Assembly: GCA_964016885.1 (NCBI GenBank)
Contig: OZ024742.1
Coordinates: 117,304,001 to 117,368,000 of the forward strand
Origin: Eledone cirrhosa
Lineage: Eukaryota
Reading direction: 5' to 3'
Length of the DNA: 64,000 nt
Each line of letters opens with the position of its first letter. Position 1 is the stretch's first letter. A program made the position numbers and the translations under genes. The notes beneath the pieces were generated by a model. The model searched no databases. It was given only the letters and a program-made list of their open reading frames with translations, and was not told the origin of the DNA. This document shows positions 5,262 through 48,909 of the stretch, piece by piece.

Positions 5262-5579
5262 AAACCTACAGTCAGTAGGCACCTCTTAACCCAATGTACA
5301 CCCCATCCCACACACCCGACCCCATCCTCCTTTTCCCGTTCCGTCCACTGTGTCGATGACACAACAGTCCACACTGTAAAGTGGTCGTGTAGGAGACACG
5401 GTAAAAAGGCTCCCAGTCCACATTGTAAATGTGGTTGGTGTTAGGAAGGGCATCCAGCTGTAAAAAGAACCTGCAGAGACATTTCCATATGAGCGAGACA
5501 CCATTCCCGTATCAAATGGAACAAAACCATCTAACCCATGCTAGCGTGGAAGATGGACATTAAACGATGATGATGATGA

Positions 5580-8013: not shown

Positions 8014-8497
8014 TCCCTCAAAATGAAAGGCAGACTGTATGATGCATGTATACGAACAGCAATGTTACATGGTAGTGAGACCTGGGCGCTGAAGGTGGAA
8101 GACTTACGTAGATTAGAGAGAAATGAAGCCTGCATGCTCCGATGGATGTGTAATAGTAATATACGCGAACAGCAAAGCATAAATGAATTGAGAGTGAGAC
8201 TGAGCATAAGAGGAATCAAATGCTGTGTGCAGGAGAGGCGGTTGCGTTGGTATGGACATGTGATGCATATGAAGGATGACAGCTGCATAAAAAGGTGCAG
8301 AGCACTAGAAGTCAATGGAAACCGCGGAGTGGGGGAGACCCAAGAAGACCTGGGATGAGGTGATAAAAGCCGACTTTACCCAATTACACCTCTCAAAGGC
8401 GATGACACACGACCGTGACCTCTGGCGTAACGCAGTAATACAGAAGAGCCGACCTCCAGCGGGGTACAAGCCGAAGCTGAAGCATATAGACAATATG
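8014..8497 (+). mobile_element. RTE ORF C-terminal fragment (subfamily C), left arm of a palindromic junction
   Basis: MKGRLYDACIRTAMLHGSETW...RRLRWYGHV...GRPKKTWDEVIK. Confidence 0.9.
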
Positions 8498-10560
8498 CAT
8501 ATTGTCTATATGCTTCAGCTTCGGTTTGTACCCATGGGAGGTCGGGTACTCTGTATTACTGCATTACGCCAGAGGTCACGGTCGTGTGTCATCGCCTTTG
8601 AGAGGTGTAATTGGGTAAGGTCGGCTTTTATCACCTCATCCCAGGTCTTCTTTGGTCTTATTGTTTCCTGTGGCTGTTTGCTGCTTGCTGTCCCAGCACT
8701 GTTGCTACATGTGAATCCCACATTCTTAGTTAAGCTTCCTGAGATCCCGCAACATCTCTTGTGTACCCATTGTTTGCATTTGGGGCAGACAATGGAGTTC
8801 CTACCTACACCTTTCCTACATACTGAGCAAGGCCATTTCCCTGAGGGGATCTGGGTTCTGTTTTCTCGTCTACTTACAAGGACCTTATTCCTTGTCAGGT
8901 TGACTTTGAGACACTTTCTTTCTAGTCCCTGCTTCCAAGTTTGGAATTTCTTCCCTAGTTCTACCATAGATTCAGCTATAAGTGCGAGGTCATCTGCATA
9001 CAGGCGTTCCCATGGGCATCCAGTCTTAAACTCCTCCGTTATTGCCTGCAGGACTATGATGAACAGGAGAGGGCTAAGAACAGAGCCTTGGTGGACACCG
9101 ACCTGTACGCTAAATTCCTCGCTATACTCATTGCTAATCCTAACTTTGCTGACTGCTCCCTTATACATGGCTTGGTGTGACCTACCAACCCAGATGCCTT
9201 CAGCATCTCGGCAGCTATACCTGATGGACCGGTTGCCTTCCCTGTCGTCATATCTTTGATTGCCTTACTTACTACACTGCTGCTGACTTGTACTGCTGGC
9301 CCCTCTATAAGATCTACTTGGGGTAGGGTCTCTTCTTCCCATGCATTCTCCTCATTTAGTAATCTATCATAATGGCTCTTCCACACATCTTTCTTCTCAG
9401 CACTTGTGAAGGCAAGCTCACCTTTATCATTCCAGATACACTTCTCTCCAATGACATCACAATTCTCTCCGACACACTGCCTCACAATCTTGAACACTTC
9501 CTGTTTCTGGTCCTCACGTTGCAAAACATGCTTGAATTTTCTATCCTCGGCTTCCCTCCTAGCTAAGTATACTTGTCGCCTAGCTTCCCTCCTGGTCCCT
9601 ATGTAATGTACCCTGCTTCCCCCATTCTTCCATTCTTTCCATGCCTGTCTCTTGGCCTTAACTGCCTCATCTACCTTATTGTTCCACCGCCAAGTCACTC
9701 TCCTCCTGCCTGTGGTCTTACTCCAGCCAGAGATCTCATCCGTCGCCTTTAGTAAGTTATTTTTTAGGAACTCCCAGTGCTCTTCTACATTGAATGTCTC
9801 TATCTGTTCTTCTTTACTGTCATAGGCATTGAGTAAAATATCTTTAAATCCGGCTGAGGGGTCTTTCTTCTCCAGGTTAGCTTCTGTTTCCAGGTTCGTC
9901 TAGTTCTGACCTACACCACCTATCCCATCGTCATTTCCCATCCAGAAAAATTTGTAGCACTGACCTTTTCCTAAAAGGACTCTAGCAGACTCTCCTCTCC
10001 ATCTAGTCTCTTGCACACAGCATACATCAATTTCCTTCCGCTCTAGCATCTCCACGATTTCTCCTGCTCTTCCTTTCATTGTGCTTACATTGATGGTTCC
10101 AACTCAGAGTTTTGGGCATTTGTCAACATTCATGGGAAAGGGTAGATTTTTGCAGGGGTGTGTGTATGCTTCCTGTCTCTGGATTGAAGCTTCACATGGG
10201 TGCTTGGTAGCTTGCGGATTCATATTAATTTTCCTTTATTAATTCAGGGTTGCTCCATTTATTCTCAGCTCATCCATACATAACGGTAGAAGAATTCAGG
10301 GCTAGAAGAACAGTGGTGGTGGTAATAATGGCAGGGTTTGTTGGGACTAGGACGGGTGAGGAGAGAGGTAGGTAGTAGTAGTAATGGCATAGTTTGTTGG
10401 CGTTGGTAATGGGTGGGGGTGGGGGGACATGCTGAGGTTTGATTGGTCGAATAGGCTATGGTGGTGTGAGGGGGTAGGCAGGAGAGAAATTGTGAGATTT
10501 GTAGCCATCATGGCCTATAGCATCTCAGGGCAAAATAAACCGATACGAGTACCTATATTA
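8498..10560 (-). mobile_element. Internally deleted RTE LINE (subfamily C) from 5' region to C-terminus
   Basis: Minus pieces: endonuclease start (VGTINV...IDVCCVQETRW, about 10110-9950), WNNKVDEAVK...GPSGIAAEMLKAS (9698-9180), YADD plus PHD finger (9168-8670). Deletions near 9900, 9170 and 8660. Confidence 0.9.
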
Positions 10561-13517: not shown

Positions 13518-15322
13518 CAGACACTAGACCTTCATCTGAAGATAAATATTGGTTTAATTTTTTAAGCATTGAAGACATTCAAAAATATCTTATTTTTTAT
13601 TGCTGCCACAATGCAAATAAACTAAAATTAGTTGGAGTTTGTTAAACTGTAAATGTAAAAATGTTAATAGTACTACACATCACAATAAGCTACCAGTTAT
13701 TACTCTTTCTCTCTTCAAAGCCACTTCAATGATCCAACATTGCTTTCACTCTCTCTCCTCCCCTACTGACAAGCAACATATAGCTGCCATTGTTACCCAT
13801 CCCACTTCTACCACTGTAAAGTGGTGGTGTTGTCATAATAATATGTATCAAATACACCTTGTAAAGGAGTAGGACTGATGCCATGAAAAAATGCATCCAA
13901 TTCACCCTGTAAAGTGGTAGTGCTGGTGTTACAATAAATTGCAGACAGTATATGCTGTAAAATTGTTAGCTTTAAAAAGGCCTCCAACTGTAGAAGCTAT
14001 GCCAAAATGGAATATATGTGCAAGCTGTGTTTATCTGAGCTCTCTAGTCTCAAGACATGACAATCTGCCCAACCCATGCTAGCAGGAACATAAATGCTAA
14101 AAGGAACATAAACGATGGTGATGAGAGGCCTGAGGAAAATTTGTTCTCCTTCATATCTACAGTTGGGGTCAACTGATTCTACCACTTTGCTATATCTATA
14201 GTAGATTCCACTTAAGACACCAAACAGCAAGGTAAGGGTTTTAATCCAGATATAAGAATAAATTATTATTATATAATTGTTTCTACATTTGGCACAAGGC
14301 CAGCAATTACCCAGTGCATTACTGGTACTTTATTTTATCGACCCCGTAAGGATGAAAGGCAAAATTATATAATCCTGAACATTTACCCCAGTAAAATGCT
14401 GGAAGTGAATTAACCTAAAGACTAAATTAATTATTTTTCCTTTGAAATAACAATACAGCAAGCACATCACCAAGTTCAAAGTCTGGATATAGAGAAAATG
14501 TTTGATGGGTATGTGGGGAATAAATACAAAATTTTAAGACATTTAATGCATTTTGAATTAAAAATGTTCAGAATTTAATTGTTTTATTAAATTAATTATA
14601 TTAAACACTTAAGGTGAATTTTAGTAAGAAAATATTTCCAATTGCAATGTAAATAGTTTGTTTTTATCATTTCCGAATTGTAAACTAATAGTTTCTTTGT
14701 TAAATTTAATTATGTGTAATTTGAAAAATATTTGTTCTAGACAAACAGAAGAGCCAAAAACACAAAACCAAACCAAAATAAATAGATAAATAAAAATAAT
14801 GATAATAATAATAATCATTATTATAATCCTTTTCAGACAATTAAAAATACCATTCTGTCTGGCAAGACAGCACAATATATATTATGTCTACAGATATATC
14901 GAACATTGTTTTGCCAAATACAGACTAATGAATATATTTTAATGTGAGGAAGTAATTTAATTATTATAGAAGAAAAAAAATGATAAATGAAATCTTACAA
15001 GCGCTTTTTAACAAAAAGTATTGATTTATTTATTTTTGTTTCAATATTTATCTAATAACCTACAAAAAACAGAGAAAATTGAAGGGAAAAGAAAAGATAA
15101 GCAAGAAGGGAATAATAATTCTAAAGTCTGAAAATGTGAGTGAAAATACAAAAACAGGTTATTAATATTTAAAATTAATGAGTATCTATCAGCCATCCCT
15201 TACAAATCAGTGCCAGATCATTTTTCATTAAAACAAATGATTGTCAAATATTTTCTTAGAGTTATGTAAAACATCAGTATATCTATATAATTTTTCAAAC
15301 TATTAATTTCAACTTTAGAGAT

Positions 15323-23435: not shown

Positions 23436-23794
<359 letters not shown>

Positions 23795-24194: not shown

Positions 24195-25141
24195 ATAGGA
24201 ACCAGTAAGACCCCGACAGCTGAGCTCAAGCCGTTTCGACGGCTAATTCTGGACTAAATGAAAATTTATCCTGGTATTTAAATAGCCGATCTTCTCAAGG
24301 GGTAATTCCATATATGGTCAAAGTGATTGTCAAAAATCAGTAGTAATTCTGTGGTTGCAAATTAGTAGGGGAGATGGTGGCTAAACCTGCCAGTAGGAGA
24401 AAGAGGGGAGGGGGTGGAGTAGACCCAATCAAGCGTTGGTAGTGCCAGCTACAGCTGGGCATGAGGTCAAAGAAGATACAGGGGAGGGGGAGGGGGAGGA
24501 AGTCGGAACGGTAGGTAGAACAATGGGGGGTAGAAATAGGAAAGAAAAAAAAAAAAAAAAAAAATACTGAGAGTGAAGAAAGGCAAATAAGTGTAAAGAA
24601 AAGTAAAGTAAATTAAATTCTACGACCTAGGTGTCAGGCTATTGTATGGCGAGAATAAAATAAAGAAAGAAAGAAAGAAGTAAAAAAATAAATAAATGAA
24701 TAAATAAGGAAATAAGTAAGAGAACTAGGTGGGACGGATAAGGCAAGGACCCTTTTAAGAGGTATAAGTACGTAAATGATACGGTGACGGGTCACAAAAG
24801 GGGCCAAGATACTAAAGGGACTACCACAAAATAAACAATAAAGGTTTCCATCCCGGGATGGAAACCTTTATTGTTTATTTCGTGGTAGTCCCTTTAGTAT
24901 CTTGGCCCCTTTTGTGACCCGTCACCGTATCATTTACGTACTTATACCTCTTAAAAGGGTCCTTGCCTTATCCGTCCCACCTAGTTCTCTTACTTATTTC
25001 CTTATTTATTCATTTATTTATTTTTTTACTTCTTTCTTTCTTTCTTTATTTTATTCTCGCCATACAATAGCCTGACACCTAGGTCGTAGAATTTAATTTA
25101 CTTTACTTTTCTTTACACTTATTTGCCTTTCTTCACTCTCA

Positions 25142-25174
<33 letters not shown>

Positions 25175-25519
25175 CTTTCCTATTTCTACCCCCCATTGTT
25201 CTACCTACCGTTCCGACTTCCTCCCCCTCCCCCTCCCCTGTATCTTCTTTGACCTCATGCCCAGCTGTAGCTGGCACTACCAACGCTTGATTGGGTCTAC
25301 TCCACCCCCTCCCCTCTTTCTCCTACTGGCAGGTTTAGCCACCATCTCCCCTACTAATTTGCAACCACAGAATTACTACTGATTTTTGACAATCACTTTG
25401 ACCATATATGGAATTACCCCTTGAGAAGATCGGCTATTTAAATACCAGGATAAATTTTCATTTAGTCCAGAATTAGCCGTCGAAACGGCTTGAGCTCAGC
25501 TGTCGGGGTCTTACTGGTT

Positions 25520-25524
<5 letters not shown>
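24195..25524. repeat. 1.33-kb spacerless near-perfect palindrome
   Basis: Centre tccatccc|gggatgga at 24854/24855. Arms differ by one visible substitution and by the A20 versus T30 run length. Confidence 0.96.
25416..25509 (+). ncRNA. Type I hammerhead-ribozyme-like motif, U3-A8 variant (mirror copy at about 24210-24303 on minus)
   Basis: Stem I ACCCC/GGGGT; core TTGAGAA; stem II GA(T)CGGCTA...TAGCCGTC; GAAA; stem III ACGGCT...AGCTGT around palindromic TGAGCTCA; GTC triplet at 25502-25504. Confidence 0.7.
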
Positions 25525-28500: not shown

Positions 28501-28853
28501 GTGAAACCTACAGTCAGTAGGCACCTCTTAACCAAATATTCACCCCAATCCACTACCCCTATCCTATCCTATCCTCCCACTCCCACCAATAGCAAGAGAA
28601 AATGAGATCGAGATCGTGTAGGTGTCACGACAAAAAAAACACACACAGTCCACGCTGTAATGTGGCCGTGTAGGGACACGGTAAAAAGTTCCCAGGCCCA
28701 CACTGTAAATGTGGTTGGTGTTAGGAAGGGCATCCAGCCGTAGAAAACCTGCCAGATACTCCTATGTGAGCGGGACACAGTCACCCGACCAGCCTAACCC
28801 ATGCTAGTGTGGAAAATGGACGTTAAACGAAGATGATGATGATGAGATGATGA
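25578..28853 (+). mobile_element. RTE LINE, slightly 5'-truncated and disabled (APE endonuclease + RT + PHD finger)
   Basis: ORFs 25623..26468 (GDLN, SQIDY) and 26469..28520 (NYRGIKL, DLEKAFD, YADD); stop at 26466 and indels near 26660-26730; (GAT)n tail; preceded by (AT)n. Confidence 0.96.
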
Positions 28854-34725: not shown

Positions 34726-37508
34726 GAGTGTCTGTTGTTAACACTAAATCCCTCCCCCATGAAGAATGCACCTCCCAACATAGACTGATAATTAGCGACC
34801 TCATAGTCAGGACGAGACGTACTCGACAACAGAAGAGGACTATCCTCAGGAGGAAAATATGGAAGCTAAAGGACCCCACAGCCAGGAATAAATTTCAAAG
34901 CATATTACTTGATGCTTTCGACAGTAAGGAAGAACATTTAGAGTCGGACAATATAGAGGGAGAGTGGGAATTTCTGAAAGCAAACCTGCTGTTGGCGACA
35001 GACGAGGTCTGTGGCTGGAGCAGGCCTGTAGGCAGGAGGAGAGTAATATGGTGGTGGAACAGTAAGGTGGAGGGGTCAATTAAGGCCAAAAAGCAGGCTT
35101 GGAAAGTATGGCGGGATGGGGGAAGTAGAGAGGACTATCAAGTGGCCAGGAGGGAAGCTAGGAGACAAGTGTACTTAGCAAGAAGGGAAGCTGAGGAAAG
35201 AAAGTTCAAGCATGTTCTACAACGCGATGACCAAAAACGTGAGGTGTTCAGGATTGCTAGGCAATGCGTCAAGGAAAACCGTGATATTGTCGGGGAGAAG
35301 TGTGTACTAAACGACGATGGCACACTTGCCATCACCGACGCTGATAAGAAGGTAGCTTGGAAGTGTCACTATGAAAGGCTTCTAAATGAGGAGAATAATT
35401 GGGAGAAAGGCAGTCTCCCCCATATCGACCCAATAGAGGGACCAGCAGTGTTAGTCGAGGGGAGTATAATAAGTAAGGCAATCAAGGATATGAAGACTGG
35501 TAAGGCGGCTGGGCCTTCGGAAATAGTTGCTGAGATGCTGAAGGCATCTGGCACGGTGGGACACACCATGGTCACCCGCATAGTTAACCAAGTCGTACAG
35601 AATGGGGTTGTTCCGAAGGACTGGCATAGCAGCATCATCGTTAACTGTTATAAGGGTAAAGGAGACGCCCTAGATAGGAGTAACTATAGAGGCATTAAAT
35701 TAATCGACCAGGTCATGAAGGTCACGGAAAGAGTAATAGCGCAACTAATCAGAGAGAGAATTGACCTAGATGAAATGCAGTTTGGATTTGTGTCAGGTAA
35801 AAGTACCACGGACGCTCTTTTCCTTGTACGACAACTACAAGAGAAGTACCTAGCTAAAAGTAAACCCCTATACTTAGCTTTTGTTGACTTGGAGAAAGCC
35901 TTCGACAGAGTCCCCCGTTCCATTATCTGGTGGGCTCTTAAAAAACTAGGTGTTGACGAATGGCTTGTGAGAGCTATACAAGCCATGTATAAAGAAACAG
36001 TCAGCAAGGTTAGAATTAACAACGAATATAGTGAAGAGTTTAGCGTAAAAGTTGGTGTCCATCAGGGCTCTGTTCTCAGTCCACTACTATTTATTATTGC
36101 CCTTCAGGCTATAACAGAGGAGTTCAAGACAGGCTGCCCATGGGAACTCCTATACGCAGACGACCTGACACTCATAGCGGAATCAATGGCCGAGCTAGAG
36201 AAGAAATTCCAAACATGGAAGCACGGCCTAGAGTCAAAAGGACTTAAAATTAACCTGGCTAAGACCAAAGTACTAGTTTGTAGGAAAGAAAACAAGGCGG
36301 CGGTCCCTTCTGGGAAATGGTCGTGCTCGGTGTGTAGGAAAGGCGTAGGTAGAAACTCCATTTTATGTCCTAAATGCAAAGTATGGGTGCATAAAAGATG
36401 TAGTGGGATCACAGGTAAGCTAACTAAGAACATAGATTTTACATGTGGCCGGTGCTCTGGTGCAATAAGTAGCAGCAAGTGCCCACAAACTACTAGCTCT
36501 TTCAATTGCGCAGAGGGTTCTATAGAAATAGTGGACAGCTTCCGTTACCTGGGCGATAAAATCAGCAGTGGGGGAGGGTGCTCTGAAAGTACTGTAGCTA
36601 GAGTCAGAACTGGTTGGAAAAAGTTCAGAGAGCTTATACCACTATTAGCTGCTAAAGGGTTCTCACTAAAAATGAAAGGCAGGTTGTACGATGCCTGCAT
36701 ACGAACAGCAATGCTGCATGGCAGTGAGACCTGGGCATTGTGTGCAGAGGATATACGCAGACTAGAGAGGAACGAAGCTTGCATGCTCCGCTGGATGTGT
36801 AACAGTAATATACGTGAACGGCAAAGCATAAACGAACTAAGGAAAAAATTAGAGATAAGAGGGATCAGATGTTGTTTACTCGAGAGAAGGCTACGTTGGT
36901 ATGGACACGTGATGCGCATGAAAGTCGATAGCTGTATAACAAAGTGCAGGGCAATAAAGATAGACGGTAGTCACGGAATAGGCAGACCTAGAAAAACCTG
37001 GGACGAGCTGATAAACTCCGACATCACACACTTACACCTCTCCAAGACAATGTCACTGGACCGAGACCTTTGGCGGTACTCAGTAACAGAGAAGACCCGC
37101 CTTACCTAAATATATAGTAAAACCTACTCCAGCCAGTAGGCATCTCTAACAAAATACACCCCGTCCCACCACCCCCACCCCCACCCGATCCACACCACCC
37201 CGTTCTATGTAAAGTTATGTTGGTGCCGCGCCTTCGAGGCCGAAACAAATGAGATCGTGTAGGTGTCACGACAAAAAAACACACAGTCCACGCTGTAATG
37301 TGGCCGTGTAGGCAACACGGTAAAAACCTCCCAGACCCACACTGTAAATGTGGTTGGTGTTAGGAAGGGCATCCAACTGTAGAAAACCTGCCAGACAGTC
37401 CTATGCGAGCAAGACAATCACTCTTGCCTCAAGTGGGACTACCCCCGTCCAAACCCATGCAAGCGTGGAACACGGACGTTAAACGTTGATGATGATGATG
37501 ATGATGAT
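34726..37508 (+). mobile_element. 5'-truncated RTE LINE with uninterrupted 793-codon ORF (RT + PHD finger) and complete 3' UTR
   Basis: ORF 34728..37109 with QFGF, DLEKAFD, GVHQG, YADD, C4HC3, FRYLG; (GAT)n tail then AT-rich repeat. Confidence 0.97.
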
Positions 37509-37651: not shown

Positions 37652-37990
37652 ATGGAGGCATATGGCTTAGTGGTTAGAGCATTGGCCTTGCAATCGAAAG
37701 GTTGTGAGTTCAATTCTCAGACCGGGTGTTGTGTTGTTTCCTTGAGCAAGACACTTTATTTCACATTGCTCCAGTTTACTCAGCTGTAGAAATGAGATGA
37801 TAAGGACTAGGGTCCCTATCATTCCACTGTAAAGTGGTCGTGGAGGTGCCACGGCAAAAAAGCACCCAGCACTCACTGTAAATGAGGTTGGTGTTAGGAA
37901 GGGCATCCAGCTGTAGAAATCAAGCCAGAATCAGTTCCCGTCCCACCCTTGCAAGCAGGGAAAAAGCGGACGTAAAATGGAATGATGATG
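37652..37990 (+). mobile_element. tRNA-derived SINE with RTE-derived 3' tail
   Basis: A-box tggcttagtgg, B-box gagttcaattc, central core, pseudoknot-like modules; tail cccacccttgcaagcagggaaaaagcggacgtaaaat..gatgatg matches the family-B RTE end (1560-1620, minus). Confidence 0.88.
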
Positions 37991-38124
37991 AATGATATAT
38001 ACTTATATATATAAGTATATATACATATATATATAGATATATACATATATATATACATATATATACATATATATATAATATATATACATATATATATATA
38101 TATACATATATATATAAAAATATA

Positions 38125-38305: not shown

Positions 38306-41300
38306 ATACGCTACATCCCTATTCCGGTATGGCTGTTTCATTGGTATAATGTAACGTAGACAAATATTTTCTCCATTCTCTCTCCATTTTTAACCCGTTA
38401 GTTCCATTCATTCACCATTCTCTATATTTTCTCTATCGTATTTCTCTATCGTATTTTCCAAAACAAATCTTGTGCTTGTTAAATTATGCCCAAAATACGG
38501 GGATCTTATTTATAACCTTACCTTCTCGCTAACTACCCAACATCCATCCCTCCCGCCCCCACGCACCACCATTATTACGTGGACCAATCATAAGTCAGAG
38601 GGCTATACTATCACTTACCTAGTTGCCTTCCGATATGATGGATGAACTACGGAATTCTGGAGAGTTGAAGAGAGAAAAATCTGGACGCTCAGCGACAATG
38701 CCAAAGATAAAGACAAATTCACCTCGTGGACGAGAATGCAAGCACTCCTCCTTGTTTCGGCCGCGGATGGCTAAGATAACCCCAACTCCGCTATCCCCCC
38801 CCCCCCGCTCCCCACCGCTCCCACCCTCCAAACACAATCCAAAACTTCAGAGTTGGTACCATGAATGTAGGCACCTTAAAGGGTCGCTCTAACGAGGTTG
38901 TGGAAATGCTTGAACGTAAGAAGGTCGATGTTTGTTGTATTCAAGAGACCAGGTGGAGGGGAGGGTCTGCTAGATTCATCGTGGGTAAAGAACGATGCTA
39001 TAAGCTTTTCTGGGTGGGAAATGACAATGGGCTGGGTGGAGTAGGAATCATGGTAGCAGAAAAGTGGGCACATAAGATAATAGACGTAAATAGAGTGAAC
39101 GACAGAATAATGAAAATAAGACTCAATAGAACTACGGTGACAGTAATATCTGCGTGCGCACCCCAATCCGGACTGCCCAGCGCTATAAAAGATAGATTCT
39201 ATGAGACACTGATGCTCGCTACCTCCCAAATAACCGACAGTGACTATATAATTATTGCAGGCGACCTAAACGGTCACGTTGGACAACATTGTGATGGCTA
39301 TGACGGAATCCATGGAGGCTATGGGTTTGGTACTAGAAATGAGGAAGGCTCCAGAATCCTCGAATTCTGTGACGCAAATAACCTAACTATCTGTAACACT
39401 AACTTCAAAAAACGAGACAATCACTTGATCACCTATAGATCGGGGGAACACACAAGCCAGGTAGATTATATCCTTACCAGAAGACGTGACAGAGTGTCTG
39501 TTGTTAACACTAAATCCCTCCCCCATGAAGAATGCACCTCCCAACATAGACTGATAATTAGCGACCTCATAGTCAGGACGAGACGTACTAGACAGCAGAA
39601 GAGGACTATCCTCAGGAGAAAAATATGGAAGCTAAAGGACCCCACAGCCAGAAATAAATTTCAAAGCATATTACTTGATGCTTTCGACAGTAAGGAAGAG
39701 CATTTAGAGTCGTATAATATAGAGGAACAGTGGGAATTCCTGAAAACAAACCTGCTGACGGCGGCAGACAAAGTCTGTGGCTGGAGCAGGCCTGTAGGTA
39801 GGAGGAGAGTAACATGGTGGTGGAACAGTAAGGTGGAGGAGTCAATTAAGGCCAAAAAGCAGGCTTGGAAAGTATGGCGGGATGGGGTAAGTAGAGAAGA
39901 CTATCAAGTGGCCAGGAGGAAAGCTAGGAGACAAGTGTACTTCGCAAGAAGGGAAGCAGAGGAAAGAAAGTTCAAGCATGTTCTACAACGCGAGGACCAA
40001 AGACATGAGGTGTTCAGGATTGCTAGGCAATGTGTCAAGGAAAACCGTGATATTGTCGGGGAGAAGTGTGTACTTAATGATGAAGGTGTACTTGCCATCA
40101 CTGACGCTGATAAGAAGGTAGCTTGGAAGAGTCACTATGAAAGGCTTCTAAATGAGGAGAATAAATGGTAAAAAGACAGTCTCCCCCACATCGACCCAAT
40201 AGAGGGACCAGCAGTGTTAGTCGAAGGTAGTATAATAAGTAAGGCAATCAAAGATATGAAGACAGGCAAGGCAGCTGGGCCTTCGGAGATAGTTGCTGAG
40301 ATGTTGAAGGCATCTGGTATGGTGGGACACACTATGGTCAACCGTATAGTTAACCAAGTAATACAGAATGGGGTCATACCGAAAGACTGGCGTAGCAGCG
40401 TCATGATTAACTACCACAAGGGTAAAGGGGATGCTCTAGATAGGGGAAACTATAGAGGCATTAAGTTAGTTGACCAAGTCATGAAGGTCACAGAAAGAGT
40501 TATAGCGCAACTAATCAGAGAGCGAATTGATCTAGATGAAATGCAGTTTGGATTTGTGTCAGGTAAAAGTACCACGGACGCTCTTTTCCTTGTACGACAA
40601 CTACAAGAGAAGTACCTAGCTAAAAGTAAACCCCTATACTTAGCTTTTGTTGACTTGGAGAAAGCCTTCGACAGAGTCCCCCGTTCCATTATCTGGTGGG
40701 CTCTTAAAAAACTAGGTGTTGACGAATGGCTTGTGAGAGCTATACAAGCCATGTATAAAGAAACAGTCAGCAAGGTTAGAATTAACAACGAATATAGTGA
40801 AGAGTTTAGCGTAAAAGTTGGTGTCCATCAGGGCTCTGTTCTTAGCCCCCTACCATTTATTATTGCCCTTCAGGCTATAACAGAGGAGTTCAAGACCGGC
40901 TGCCCATGGGAACTCCTATACGCAGATGATCTAACGCTCATAGCTGAATCAATGGCCGAGCTAGAGAAGAAATTCCAAACATGGAAGCATGGCCTAGAAT
41001 CAAAAGGCCTTAAAATTAACCTGGCTAAGACTAAAGTTCTAGTTTGTAGGAAAGAAAATAAGGCGCCGGTCCCTTCCGGGAAATGGCCATGCTCAGTGTG
41101 TAGGAAAGGCGTAGGTAGAAACTCTATTTTATGTCCCAAATGCAAAGTATGGGTGCATAAAAGATGTAGTGGGATCACAGGTAAGCTAACTAAGAACATA
41201 GATTTTACATGTGGCCGGTGCTCTGGTGCAATAAGTAGCAGCAAGTGCCCACAAAATACTAGCTCTTTCAATTGCGGAGAGGTTTCTATAGAAATAGTGG

Positions 41301-46960: not shown

Positions 46961-47309
46961 GATTAGCTGGCAGGGGGGCTCTTGCTAAGGGAGAGGATGA
47001 GAGATGGGGGAAGAGGGGCAGAGAATGGTAGGTGTATCTATACAGGGGAGGAGGCAGGGGAAGGAAATAATTTGGGTGGGGGTAGAAATAGTTAATAGGC
47101 AGGAACAGAGGAAGAGAAGAAGAACAAATAGATATATGGAATCATAAAAATAAAAAGTGAAAGAGGTGAGGAGTTGGACATGCACACATAGAGATTAGAA
47201 GGTAAATACATAAATGGATTTTTTAAAGAAATTTTAAAAAGGTTTATATAGTAATAAATAAATTAGTAAGTAAATTGGTGAATAAGATAAAATAAAATGT
47301 TGTAAATGC

Positions 47310-48909
47310 TTAATTAGATCTCCTGGTCTTGATGGTGTTACGTACCTGCTTCTTAAACGTGGTGGGTACTTCCTTCTGCACCAGTTATTTAGCTTCTTCC
47401 AATTCTGTCTGAACAACAGTGCTACTCCAGAACAGTGGAAAACTGCCAGTGTCATTCTTCTGTTCAAAAAGGGTGACCACACATCACTTGTGAACTATCG
47501 TCCAGTCAGTCTTACTAGTTGCATCGCCAAACTGATGGAATCCTGTGTCAGAGAAACACTTTGGAACTTCTGGAGCTCTCACAGTCTTATCCGGCCCTCG
47601 CAATTTGGATTTATCCCCAACTCCAGCTGCTGTGATCAACTTATAGAGTTTCTTGAGGACATCACCCGGATCACTGATGGCGGCTCATGGGTGGATGTTG
47701 TTTACCTTGACTTTGCAAAAGCCTTCAATTCTGTGCCACACAAAAGGCTTATGGCAAAACTCTCTGCAATGGGTGTGAAGGATGATCTTTTTAACTGGTT
47801 GAAGTCCTTCATTCTCAGTCGAAGAGAGGTAGTCACGTTTCTGGGACAGCATTCCTCACCATATGAGATGTCATCTGGTATACCACAGGTATCTGTTCTT
47901 GGCCCCCTTTTGTTTGTGGCATGTATTAATGACATGGATGCCAACTTAAAGAATGCCACAGTACTAAAGTACGCAGACGACATCAAGCTGTACCTTGAGA
48001 TAAAAAGGACAGATCCTGAACACTATAGATCTTGCTTGCAGTCTGACCTGGACACAATGCAACAATGGATCTCAGACTGGCAACTCAAGCTAGCTGTGGA
48101 CAAGTGCACCACCATGCATTTTGGGAGTAAAAACCCAGCGTCCACATACTCCCTCCACAGCACTAATATCAAGAAGTCTTCTTGTGAACGTGACCTGGGC
48201 ATTACGGTCAGCAGCGATTTGCATTGGACAAAGCACATCTCTAAAATTGTCAAGAGGGCCGAGGGTGTCTTGGCATCACTCAGCAAGACCTTTGTCAGCC
48301 GCTCTCCAGATATCTATTTAAGGCTGCACATGGCTATGGTGCGACCACACTTAGAATTTGCATCACCAGTCTGGAACCCCTATCTTGCTCAGAACATTGA
48401 CTGCCTGGAAACTGTTCAGAGACGTGCAACCAAGCGAATACCCTCCATCAGGCATCTACCATACTCTGAGCGCCTTGCTTCCCTGGGCATGGATACATTG
48501 AAGCTCCGACGCCTGGCAACTGACTTGGTAAACACCCACAAAATTGTTAACCATGTTGCCAACAACAACCCTGAGTACCTTTTTGATTTCCATGTGTCTA
48601 ACACACGTGGACATGCCCACAAAGTAAGAAAACAGCACAGTTCCCATGACTTTCGGAAACATTTTTTCACGCTCAGAGTTGCTGAAGCATGGAACAAACT
48701 ACCTGTATAGGTTGTTGGCTGTCGAGACACTGCATCCTTTAAGGCCTTCATGCTTCCCGAGATCCGCCAACACTACAGCTAACACATACACACATATACT
48801 TCTCTGACATTTGTGTATTATTCTATGTACTATACATACACCTTTGACGAGTTGTAGTGCACCTGAGCACTTTACACAATAATTTCATTATTATTATTAT
48901 TATTATTAT
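47310..48909 (+). mobile_element. 5'-truncated CR1-clade LINE with open RT ORF (47490-48710) and (ATT)n tail
   Basis: SPGLDG, NYRPVSLTS, SQFGF, YLDFAKAF, YADD, ERDLG, VRPHLEFASPVW, VQRRATK, WNKLP. The 3' UTR is duplicated at about 52600-52765. Confidence 0.95.

Follow-up and report, generated by a model that had tools for sequence, protein, structure and literature searches.

The window analysed here is a stretch of 64,000 nucleotides from the 3.0 Gb genome of Eledone cirrhosa (contig OZ024742.1, positions 117,304,001 to 117,368,000, forward strand). Among its features is a 5'-truncated LINE ORF of a family that we call F1, and behind the stop codon of this ORF, which encodes a reverse transcriptase (RT) and a PHD finger, lies an array of short repeated modules that is followed by the tail of the element and then by a SINE (Table 1). 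F1-type LINEs have the single ORF with APE endonuclease and RT that is typical of the RTE clade, the endonuclease being present in a sister copy at 38780, and they also share with that clade a short 3' end with a microsatellite tail and no poly(A). We take these LINEs to be RTE elements from the single-ORF layout and the (GAT)n tail, the tree described below containing no named references. The terminal stem-loop together with the (GAT)n tail is likely to be the priming signal. Within the ORF the PHD finger is situated 3' of the RT core (window 36320-36460; Pfam E 4.9e-05, slightly short of the curated cut-off). The 5' region of F1 (window 38310-38840) is a pyrimidine-rich segment of about 530 bases that does not resemble the 5' UTR of older lineages, and likely represents a promoter replacement. 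A second RT ORF, unrelated to the F1 LINE and presumably CR1-like, is found at 47286-48710.

Table 1. Features of the window and of related loci; positions are those of the window unless a locus or contig is named.
Feature	Position	Strand	Remarks
Copy with compensated A-T loop-tail pair	5372..5480	+	family of 1,601 exact matches
Older F1-lineage copy	28614..28760	+	two changed pairs in loop-tail stem
LINE ORF, family F1	34728..37109	+	5'-truncated, single-ORF type with RT and PHD finger
Degenerate upstream module	37205..37235	+	hairpin-loop remnant and weak stem; by eye
Module A	37255..37283	+	stem 1 37255-59/37267-71, loop 37260-66, then A-run
Hairpin 1	37288..37303	+	5 bp, GUAA-containing loop
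Module B (focus)	37303..37331	+	7-bp stem 1, loop 37310-14, A-run, tail 37327-31
Hairpin 2	37337..37353	+	5 bp, 7-nt loop
Module C	37352..37395	+	stem 37352-57/37373-78 enclosing purine-rich loop
Terminal stem-loop and (GAT)n tail	37446..37508	+	
SINE, tRNA-derived head	37653..37725	+	Rfam tRNA 37663-37720, 28.1 bits (gathering 29), E 0.0016
SINE, CORE domain	37736..37771	+	predicted H-type pseudoknot
SINE, hairpin after CORE pseudoknot	37779..37796	+	
SINE, hairpin, intact pseudoknot module, hairpin and module C	37824..37930	+	matches F2 3' UTR
SINE, tail	37937..37992	+	matches 3' end of module-less LINE family F0
Module minisatellites	L313:1128-7201 (G000 C1); C1 near 112.32 Mb; C2 near 25.78 Mb; L322-L323		

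The repeated unit of the array is about 48-50 bases long and consists, in order, of stem 1, a loop, an A-run and a tail, after which a short linker leads to a hairpin whose loop is of GUAA type. It is not a chance arrangement, since the octopod's own genome contains 26,748 exact matches to a 27-letter module pattern compared with none to a reversed control. The letters that an earlier, sequence-only reading of this DNA had quoted are all present (at 5384, 28665, 37303, 7803, 42064 and 37837, in the upstream module at 37255 and in an old copy near 13875). Contigs of three sequencing runs held only module variants that were already known, and viral contigs gave no matches. An Rfam search, which that reading had proposed, recognised no family in the modules; over the window there was no match at gathering, and up to E 10 the tRNA head of the SINE and low-complexity noise accounted for everything reported. 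Our own-genome sample comprised 1.86 Mb of blocks, 120 kb of them chosen at known matches, together with 60 loci picked by pattern, so that counts of module types drawn from it are not frequencies.

The same unit also forms minisatellites with a period of 47-49 bases, partly broken stems and up to 129 copies per array. These look neutral. In a comparison of satellite with dispersed copies, meant as a control for decay, 23 satellite units were parsed, and some leaked into the dispersed set. The array had been attributed to selected multimerisation, for which there is no need given that module number varies and that the unit can expand into a 129-copy minisatellite. In one F1 subfamily modules B and C are duplicated as a 112-base block, giving the order A-B-C-B-C (L071:6020-6480 and similar copies).

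H-type pseudoknots have a loop 1 of 1-3 nt and a loop 3 of 5-8 nt, and the loops of the parsed module types fall within these lengths, although this is doubtful for the shifted register of module B. Pairing was assessed over 16 module types that were hand-picked and related and that also supplied the structure, and because relatedness alone can beat shuffles the following values should be read in that light: 83.8% of 167 cells were paired compared with 77.2% after shuffling (none of 500 shuffles as high), and six of 11 pairs showed two-sided change (as many in 9 of 500). Stem 1, which forms a hairpin in single-sequence folding and carries compensatory change as expected of an H-type fold, contributed three two-sided pairs of seven with 79.8% of its cells paired, its outer and inner pairs often being open. 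The loop-tail stem contributed three of four, with 90.5% paired, yet it is broken in module B and in a second young family. Controls in which the partner was slid were paired in 26-57% of cells. The claim that both pairings vary together across copies fails at module B.

Genome-wide, the middle pair of the loop-tail stem is T-A in 37,835 matches, A-T in 1,601, A.A in 484 and T.T in 203. By hand calculation about 94 A-T matches would be expected under independence; the excess is essentially one family-level event, and the A.A rows include a small mismatched subfamily and a satellite. In the type represented by the old copy near 13875 it is the second loop-tail pair that is compensated. The closing pair of hairpin 1 was T-A in 58, C-G in 30, T.G in nine and C.A in three of the first 100 of 40,348 matches, counted by hand. 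The first module keeps four to five loop-tail pairs in both young families, and in module A of the window the loop-tail stem (37263-66/37279-82) has 4 bp in a register one base off the ancestral type. Taken together, comparative support for a fold of pseudoknot plus hairpin in the modules is moderate, and the likely fold of the repeated unit is an H-type pseudoknot with a hairpin behind it.

Several observations run against this fold. Module B, which had been listed among the covarying copies, belongs among the decayed modules: it retains two of four loop-tail pairs in the common register, the 3-bp pairing requires a shifted register, and a run as long arose in 44% of trials with shuffled tails. 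This variant has 37,317 exact matches in the genome. In the second young family, F2, a C.A mismatch interrupts the loop-tail stem of the second module (33 of 264 parsed modules), and in F1 and F2 alike the decayed copy is the one adjoining module C. In folding that allows no pseudoknots, module C instead pairs with the tail of this copy, forming a rival helix. A full loop-tail stem was present in 49% of the 264 parsed modules, a biased sample, and in single copies the loop-tail runs were no longer than with shuffled tails (20-70% of trials as long). The inner pair of stem 1 is frequently unpaired in older types. Furthermore, the region as a whole folds no better than shuffles (z -0.08, calculated with no pseudoknot energies). 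The H-type topology with an A-rich strand proposed by the sequence-only reading has partial support, together with some compensatory change; the loop-tail stem is broken in two young variants.

That reading had also assigned a tail pairing to every module, which does not extend to the last one. The stem of module C was kept in 89 of 113 distinct metagenome copies among the matches listed, compared with 13% in shuffles (the 3' strand being fixed by the search pattern), and its purine-rich loop is conserved across animals. The partner for a tail is not conserved, a tail of the kind described having been found in 12 of the 113 distinct metagenome copies listed.

Module C sits in the 5' UTRs of related LINEs, and several lines of evidence place the whole unit there in the ancestral state. 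Several own-genome LINE lineages lack 3' modules, their ORF running straight into the terminal stem-loop. A module profile matches 100-300 bases upstream of the endonuclease in the single F0 element and in four of six older elements; of the other two, one has the 5' unit by motif only and one is truncated. The same profile found the unit in the 5' regions of none of 12 F1- and F2-type elements, five of which keep at least 290 bases of mutually homologous 5' sequence. Among elements complete at both ends, three have the 5' unit only, nine the 3' array only and none both. The F0-type pattern of the 5' unit has 10 matches, too few for pair counts.

A tree built from 45 C-terminal fragments unites the 28 rows that have 3' modules in a single clade (96/100, the bootstrap not having settled), nested within module-less lineages. 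The young families had been thinned for this tree, rows below 125 aa and close rows with no recognisable tail were dropped, and it was rooted at the midpoint with seven distant rows. The core of module C was also found in at least 121 stretches of metagenome contigs. It stands upstream of an endonuclease ORF, in other animals, in four of the 121 loci listed, and in none of them is it preceded by a same-strand RT. At one metagenome locus (L170) a module of pseudoknot type, whose stem 1 is different, lies in front of module C. Because of the tree, the separation of 5'-only from 3'-only elements and the positions of module C in the metagenomes, we regard the unit, as far as sequence comparison can place it, as originally a solitary element of the 5' UTR, with one move to the 3' UTR in a single derived clade. 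Contrary to what had been supposed, the array is thus not native to the 3' UTR: the 3' end of older lineages lacks the unit, which they carry once in the 5' UTR. A role as a poly(A) substitute that protects the 3' end is for this reason unlikely. Many copies are 5'-truncated, and a finished insertion need not contain the unit.

Two to three tandem copies of another motif lie upstream of the unit in older LINE 5' UTRs (L008:9300-9700, L018 and L004); we take this motif to resemble the RTE 5' UTR domain of Kojima, a likeness that derives partly from a Lyst sequence. At L190, L239 and L144 a structured motif upstream of module C, which at L239 falls within a LINE 5' UTR, combines a purine-loop hairpin with a stem whose G-rich loop is able to pair downstream, and is possibly ribozyme-like. 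A headless repeat of about 250 bases, with a shared start base before a hairpin and module C and with an RTE-like tail, occurs at many metagenome loci (L153, L154 and L173 among them).

The start base of the SINE in the window is shared by 14 of 42 copies. That the modules are common to the LINE and its partner SINE is borne out, with the LINE subfamily concerned being F2; since the SINE modules match the F2 3' UTR, and since some SINE copies retain both F2 modules, capture of the modules from a LINE is plausible. The tail of the SINE, however, is that of the module-less LINE family F0. Its last 48 bases have matches of 91-98% in 15 other ends, of which 11 or more are ORF ends of module-less elements, and because abundant LINEs with no 3' modules share this sequence with the SINE the array is not a 3' tail signal.

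Between its tRNA head and its modules the SINE carries a CORE motif, the arrangement that defines CORE-SINEs, its likeness to published CORE sequences having been judged by eye. The CORE-SINE superfamily was reportedly recognised by Gilbert and Labuda in 1999. A predicted CORE pseudoknot was missed by the sequence-only reading, and it is better supported than that of the LINE modules. Stem 1 (37736-40/37750-54) has 5 bp, with one mismatch in the young family and none in several older copies, and the loop-tail stem (37744-49/37766-71) has six Watson-Crick pairs. In an older own-genome family the second loop-tail pair is G-C instead of A-T (19 copies). An independent SINE from another organism, found in the metagenomes (L192), has a tRNA head, a CORE pseudoknot, module C and an RTE-like tail; its CORE domain combines a third, different stem 1 with a 6-bp loop-tail stem.

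Published consensus sequences, read by eye, extend this pattern across phyla. A loop-tail stem of at least 4 bp is present in 10 of 11 invertebrate consensus sequences (PMC5804259 supplement), with four to six contiguous pairs and, in two of them, ambiguity codes; the crab Peci has three pairs only. All six vertebrate CORE sequences among the matches in the PMC5786205 supplement, as far as that source was available, have four to six pairs. Two-sided changes are seen at position 2 in Limulus, position 4 in Aplysia and position 5 in Gandalfus (PMC5804259 supplement), and at position 3 in Xenopus MIR_Xt (available part of the PMC5786205 supplement). Stem 1 has been replaced almost wholly in decapods with pairing retained, and the hairpin after CORE shows two-sided changes too. 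With both stems kept across phyla by two-sided change, as an H-type fold demands, the CORE domain probably folds as an H-type pseudoknot. Descent of CORE and the LINE module from a common ancestor found no support: in two tests of the LINE-module profile on 60-70 CORE copies the scores were not above those of shuffles, and the likeness is one of layout.

How might these structures be used? The presence of the unit in 5' UTRs, in 3' UTRs and in a non-coding SINE disfavours a function confined to one end or limited to translation. Our preferred interpretation, which we hold tentatively, is that the unit would be an RNA docking site whose action does not depend on position, that it was relocated from 5' to 3' and duplicated, and that it aids entry of the RNA into the retrotransposition complex. 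Binding could be by the protein that the element itself encodes or by a host factor that is conserved. The move may have come about by recombination with a bipartite non-autonomous derivative combining a 5' part with a 3' tail, after which slippage would have multiplied the unit, and the resulting redundancy could have allowed the copy adjoining module C to decay while the first copy stayed paired. CORE would be a separate H-type pseudoknot plus hairpin with a layout like that of the unit, and such a pseudoknot would explain the retention of this segment in SINEs with different LINE partners. A bolder extension, which we consider rather doubtful, is that CORE, from corals to vertebrate MIR-type elements, and the LINE unit, alike in layout and able to work in both UTRs, both dock one conserved factor that delivers RNA to RT, the 3' arrays being the answer of the LINE to competition from SINEs.

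Alternatively, the unit might be a translation aid for uncapped or non-polyadenylated LINE RNA, which in old lineages would act from the 5' UTR and in the derived clade would serve as an array of 3' enhancers. The tandem 3' pseudoknots of tobamoviruses enhance translation, which speaks for such a role, as does the ancestral location 100-300 bases before the endonuclease. Structured 5' ends have in addition been found to support translation of RTE ORFs in reporters, according to the available part of PMC8501958. The distance from unit to ORF varies, however, and the most intact module, among the 37,835 matches, is in a non-coding SINE, so that we judge a translational role unlikely. It is likewise improbable that the 3' array is by now largely a vestige of a 5' structure which once had a function, was carried along and became multiplied through slippage, selection for pairing having since relaxed. 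Such a history would fit the broken loop-tail stems of the largest young variants, the variable module number, the minisatellites of 47 and 48 bases and a folding z-score near 0, but the two-sided changes arose inside the clade with 3' arrays, modules are kept in all 28 of its rows in the tree and the first module remains paired.

A third alternative is that the unit stabilises the RNA as an exonuclease barrier in the manner of xrRNAs. A compact pseudoknot in a 5' UTR would be well placed to shield the ORF, and many copies of the headless metagenome repeat start, by eye, at the same base before the hairpin and module C. In a 3' UTR, however, the unit would not shield the ORF; truncated copies have their 5' ends at scattered positions and do not pile up at the modules (a cluster at 581 is an internal duplication), and Rfam gave no xrRNA family match in the window, all of which makes a barrier quite improbable. 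Last, although RTE 5' ends hold promoters and ribozymes (available parts of PMC5786205 and PMC8501958), it is very improbable that the unit acts as a DNA element for promotion or factor binding, against which the two-sided pair changes point to RNA structure, or as a self-cleaving ribozyme, which, cutting between ORF and tail, would split full-length F1 and F2 RNA even though such copies abound, and which has no Rfam ribozyme match in the window. HDV-like and twister ribozymes in particular were rejected for want of a family-model match and because the unit is internal rather than at the 5' end of the element. A reading of the hairpin as an anticodon loop or tRNA mimic was dropped, its loop varying among GNRA-type forms; the stacked helix of the unit is also longer than a tRNA arm.

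The docking-site interpretation can be set beside a number of known systems. Small H-type pseudoknots with an A-rich loop 3 occur in the preQ1-I aptamer and in luteoviral frameshift signals, and these, together with tobamoviral pseudoknots, share with the unit a 5-7 bp stem, a short second stem, an A-rich connector or a tandem 3' UTR array. This is a resemblance only, no ligand pocket, slippery site or Rfam match having been found in the unit. The pseudoknot of Alu is a 7SL-derived loop-loop type and not an H-type with an A- or pyrimidine-rich connector. Bound in the Alu domain by SRP9/14 (PMC12265939, available part), it nonetheless provides a case of a SINE pseudoknot docking a host factor and serves as our working model for CORE. 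Twister and HDV-like ribozymes (PMC8501958; Ruminski 2011 as cited in PMC5786205; available text of both) place pseudoknotted RNA in RTE 5' regions, as here, but they form double pseudoknots, have catalytic residues and lie at the very 5' end, whereas the unit is internal and predicted to form a single knot.

In R2 elements the protein binds structured 5' and 3' RNA (bioRxiv 10.1101/2023.04.07.536001), and the 3' UTRs of vertebrate A-clade R2 contain a pseudoknot (PMC12503042), as described in the available portions of these papers. Both systems consist of structured RNA in a non-LTR element, that of R2 being bound by its own protein. R2 differs in clade and endonuclease and has single structures, no tandem unit and, in the available text, no known 5'-to-3' move; the likeness is drawn with no comparison of sequences.

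A close parallel to the SINE of the window is offered by the bipartite RTE-derived SINEs WALLSI2 and SINE2-2_ACar, which, in the available part of Kojima 2018 (PMC5786205), have the same order of tRNA, CORE, RTE 5' part and RTE 3' tail. Their 5' UTR piece differs, and the core of module C was not found in the available supplement text of that paper; moreover, in the present case the piece is also borne, in the 3' UTR, by an autonomous clade of LINEs. The same source records, in the part available, that RTE-derived SINEs repeatedly retain a 5' UTR piece beside the 3' tail. In the CORE-SINE superfamily, too, a tRNA head is followed by a central domain with the core motif, as here (PMC4824008, PMC5804259), and all members are said to share a 45-bp part (PMC4824008). 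The available text of these papers leaves function open, whereas the pairing and its compensations are read in the present analysis. Our literature searches, which included PMC13282606 and whose scope stopped at figures and most subscription papers, found no published description of the LINE-module or CORE pseudoknots, and the word "pseudoknot" is absent from the main text, as available, of PMC4758252, PMC5804259, PMC4824008, PMC11481361 and PMC5786205.

The conservation of SINE central domains across hundreds of Myr is described as an open question in the available parts of PMC4824008 and PMC11481361. A CORE pseudoknot with natural compensatory pairs at four positions makes the retention of the central domain a testable matter. 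If the unit did move from 5' to 3', such elements would need, in addition to the tail, a second RNA signal that works independently of position, and the move would explain why RTE-derived SINEs keep pieces of the 5' UTR. It would also bear on how templates are designed for RTE-based gene insertion, in which both UTRs are used (PMC13708176, available part).

Elsewhere in the window, two F2-type copies are fused tail to tail at 8309-9264, with a palindromic junction just past the end of the ORF. A palindrome with 147-base arms lies in a TA tract at 23436-23729, and near-perfect long palindromes occupy 24195-25524, one with 370-base arms at 100% identity and another with 314-base arms and no spacer.
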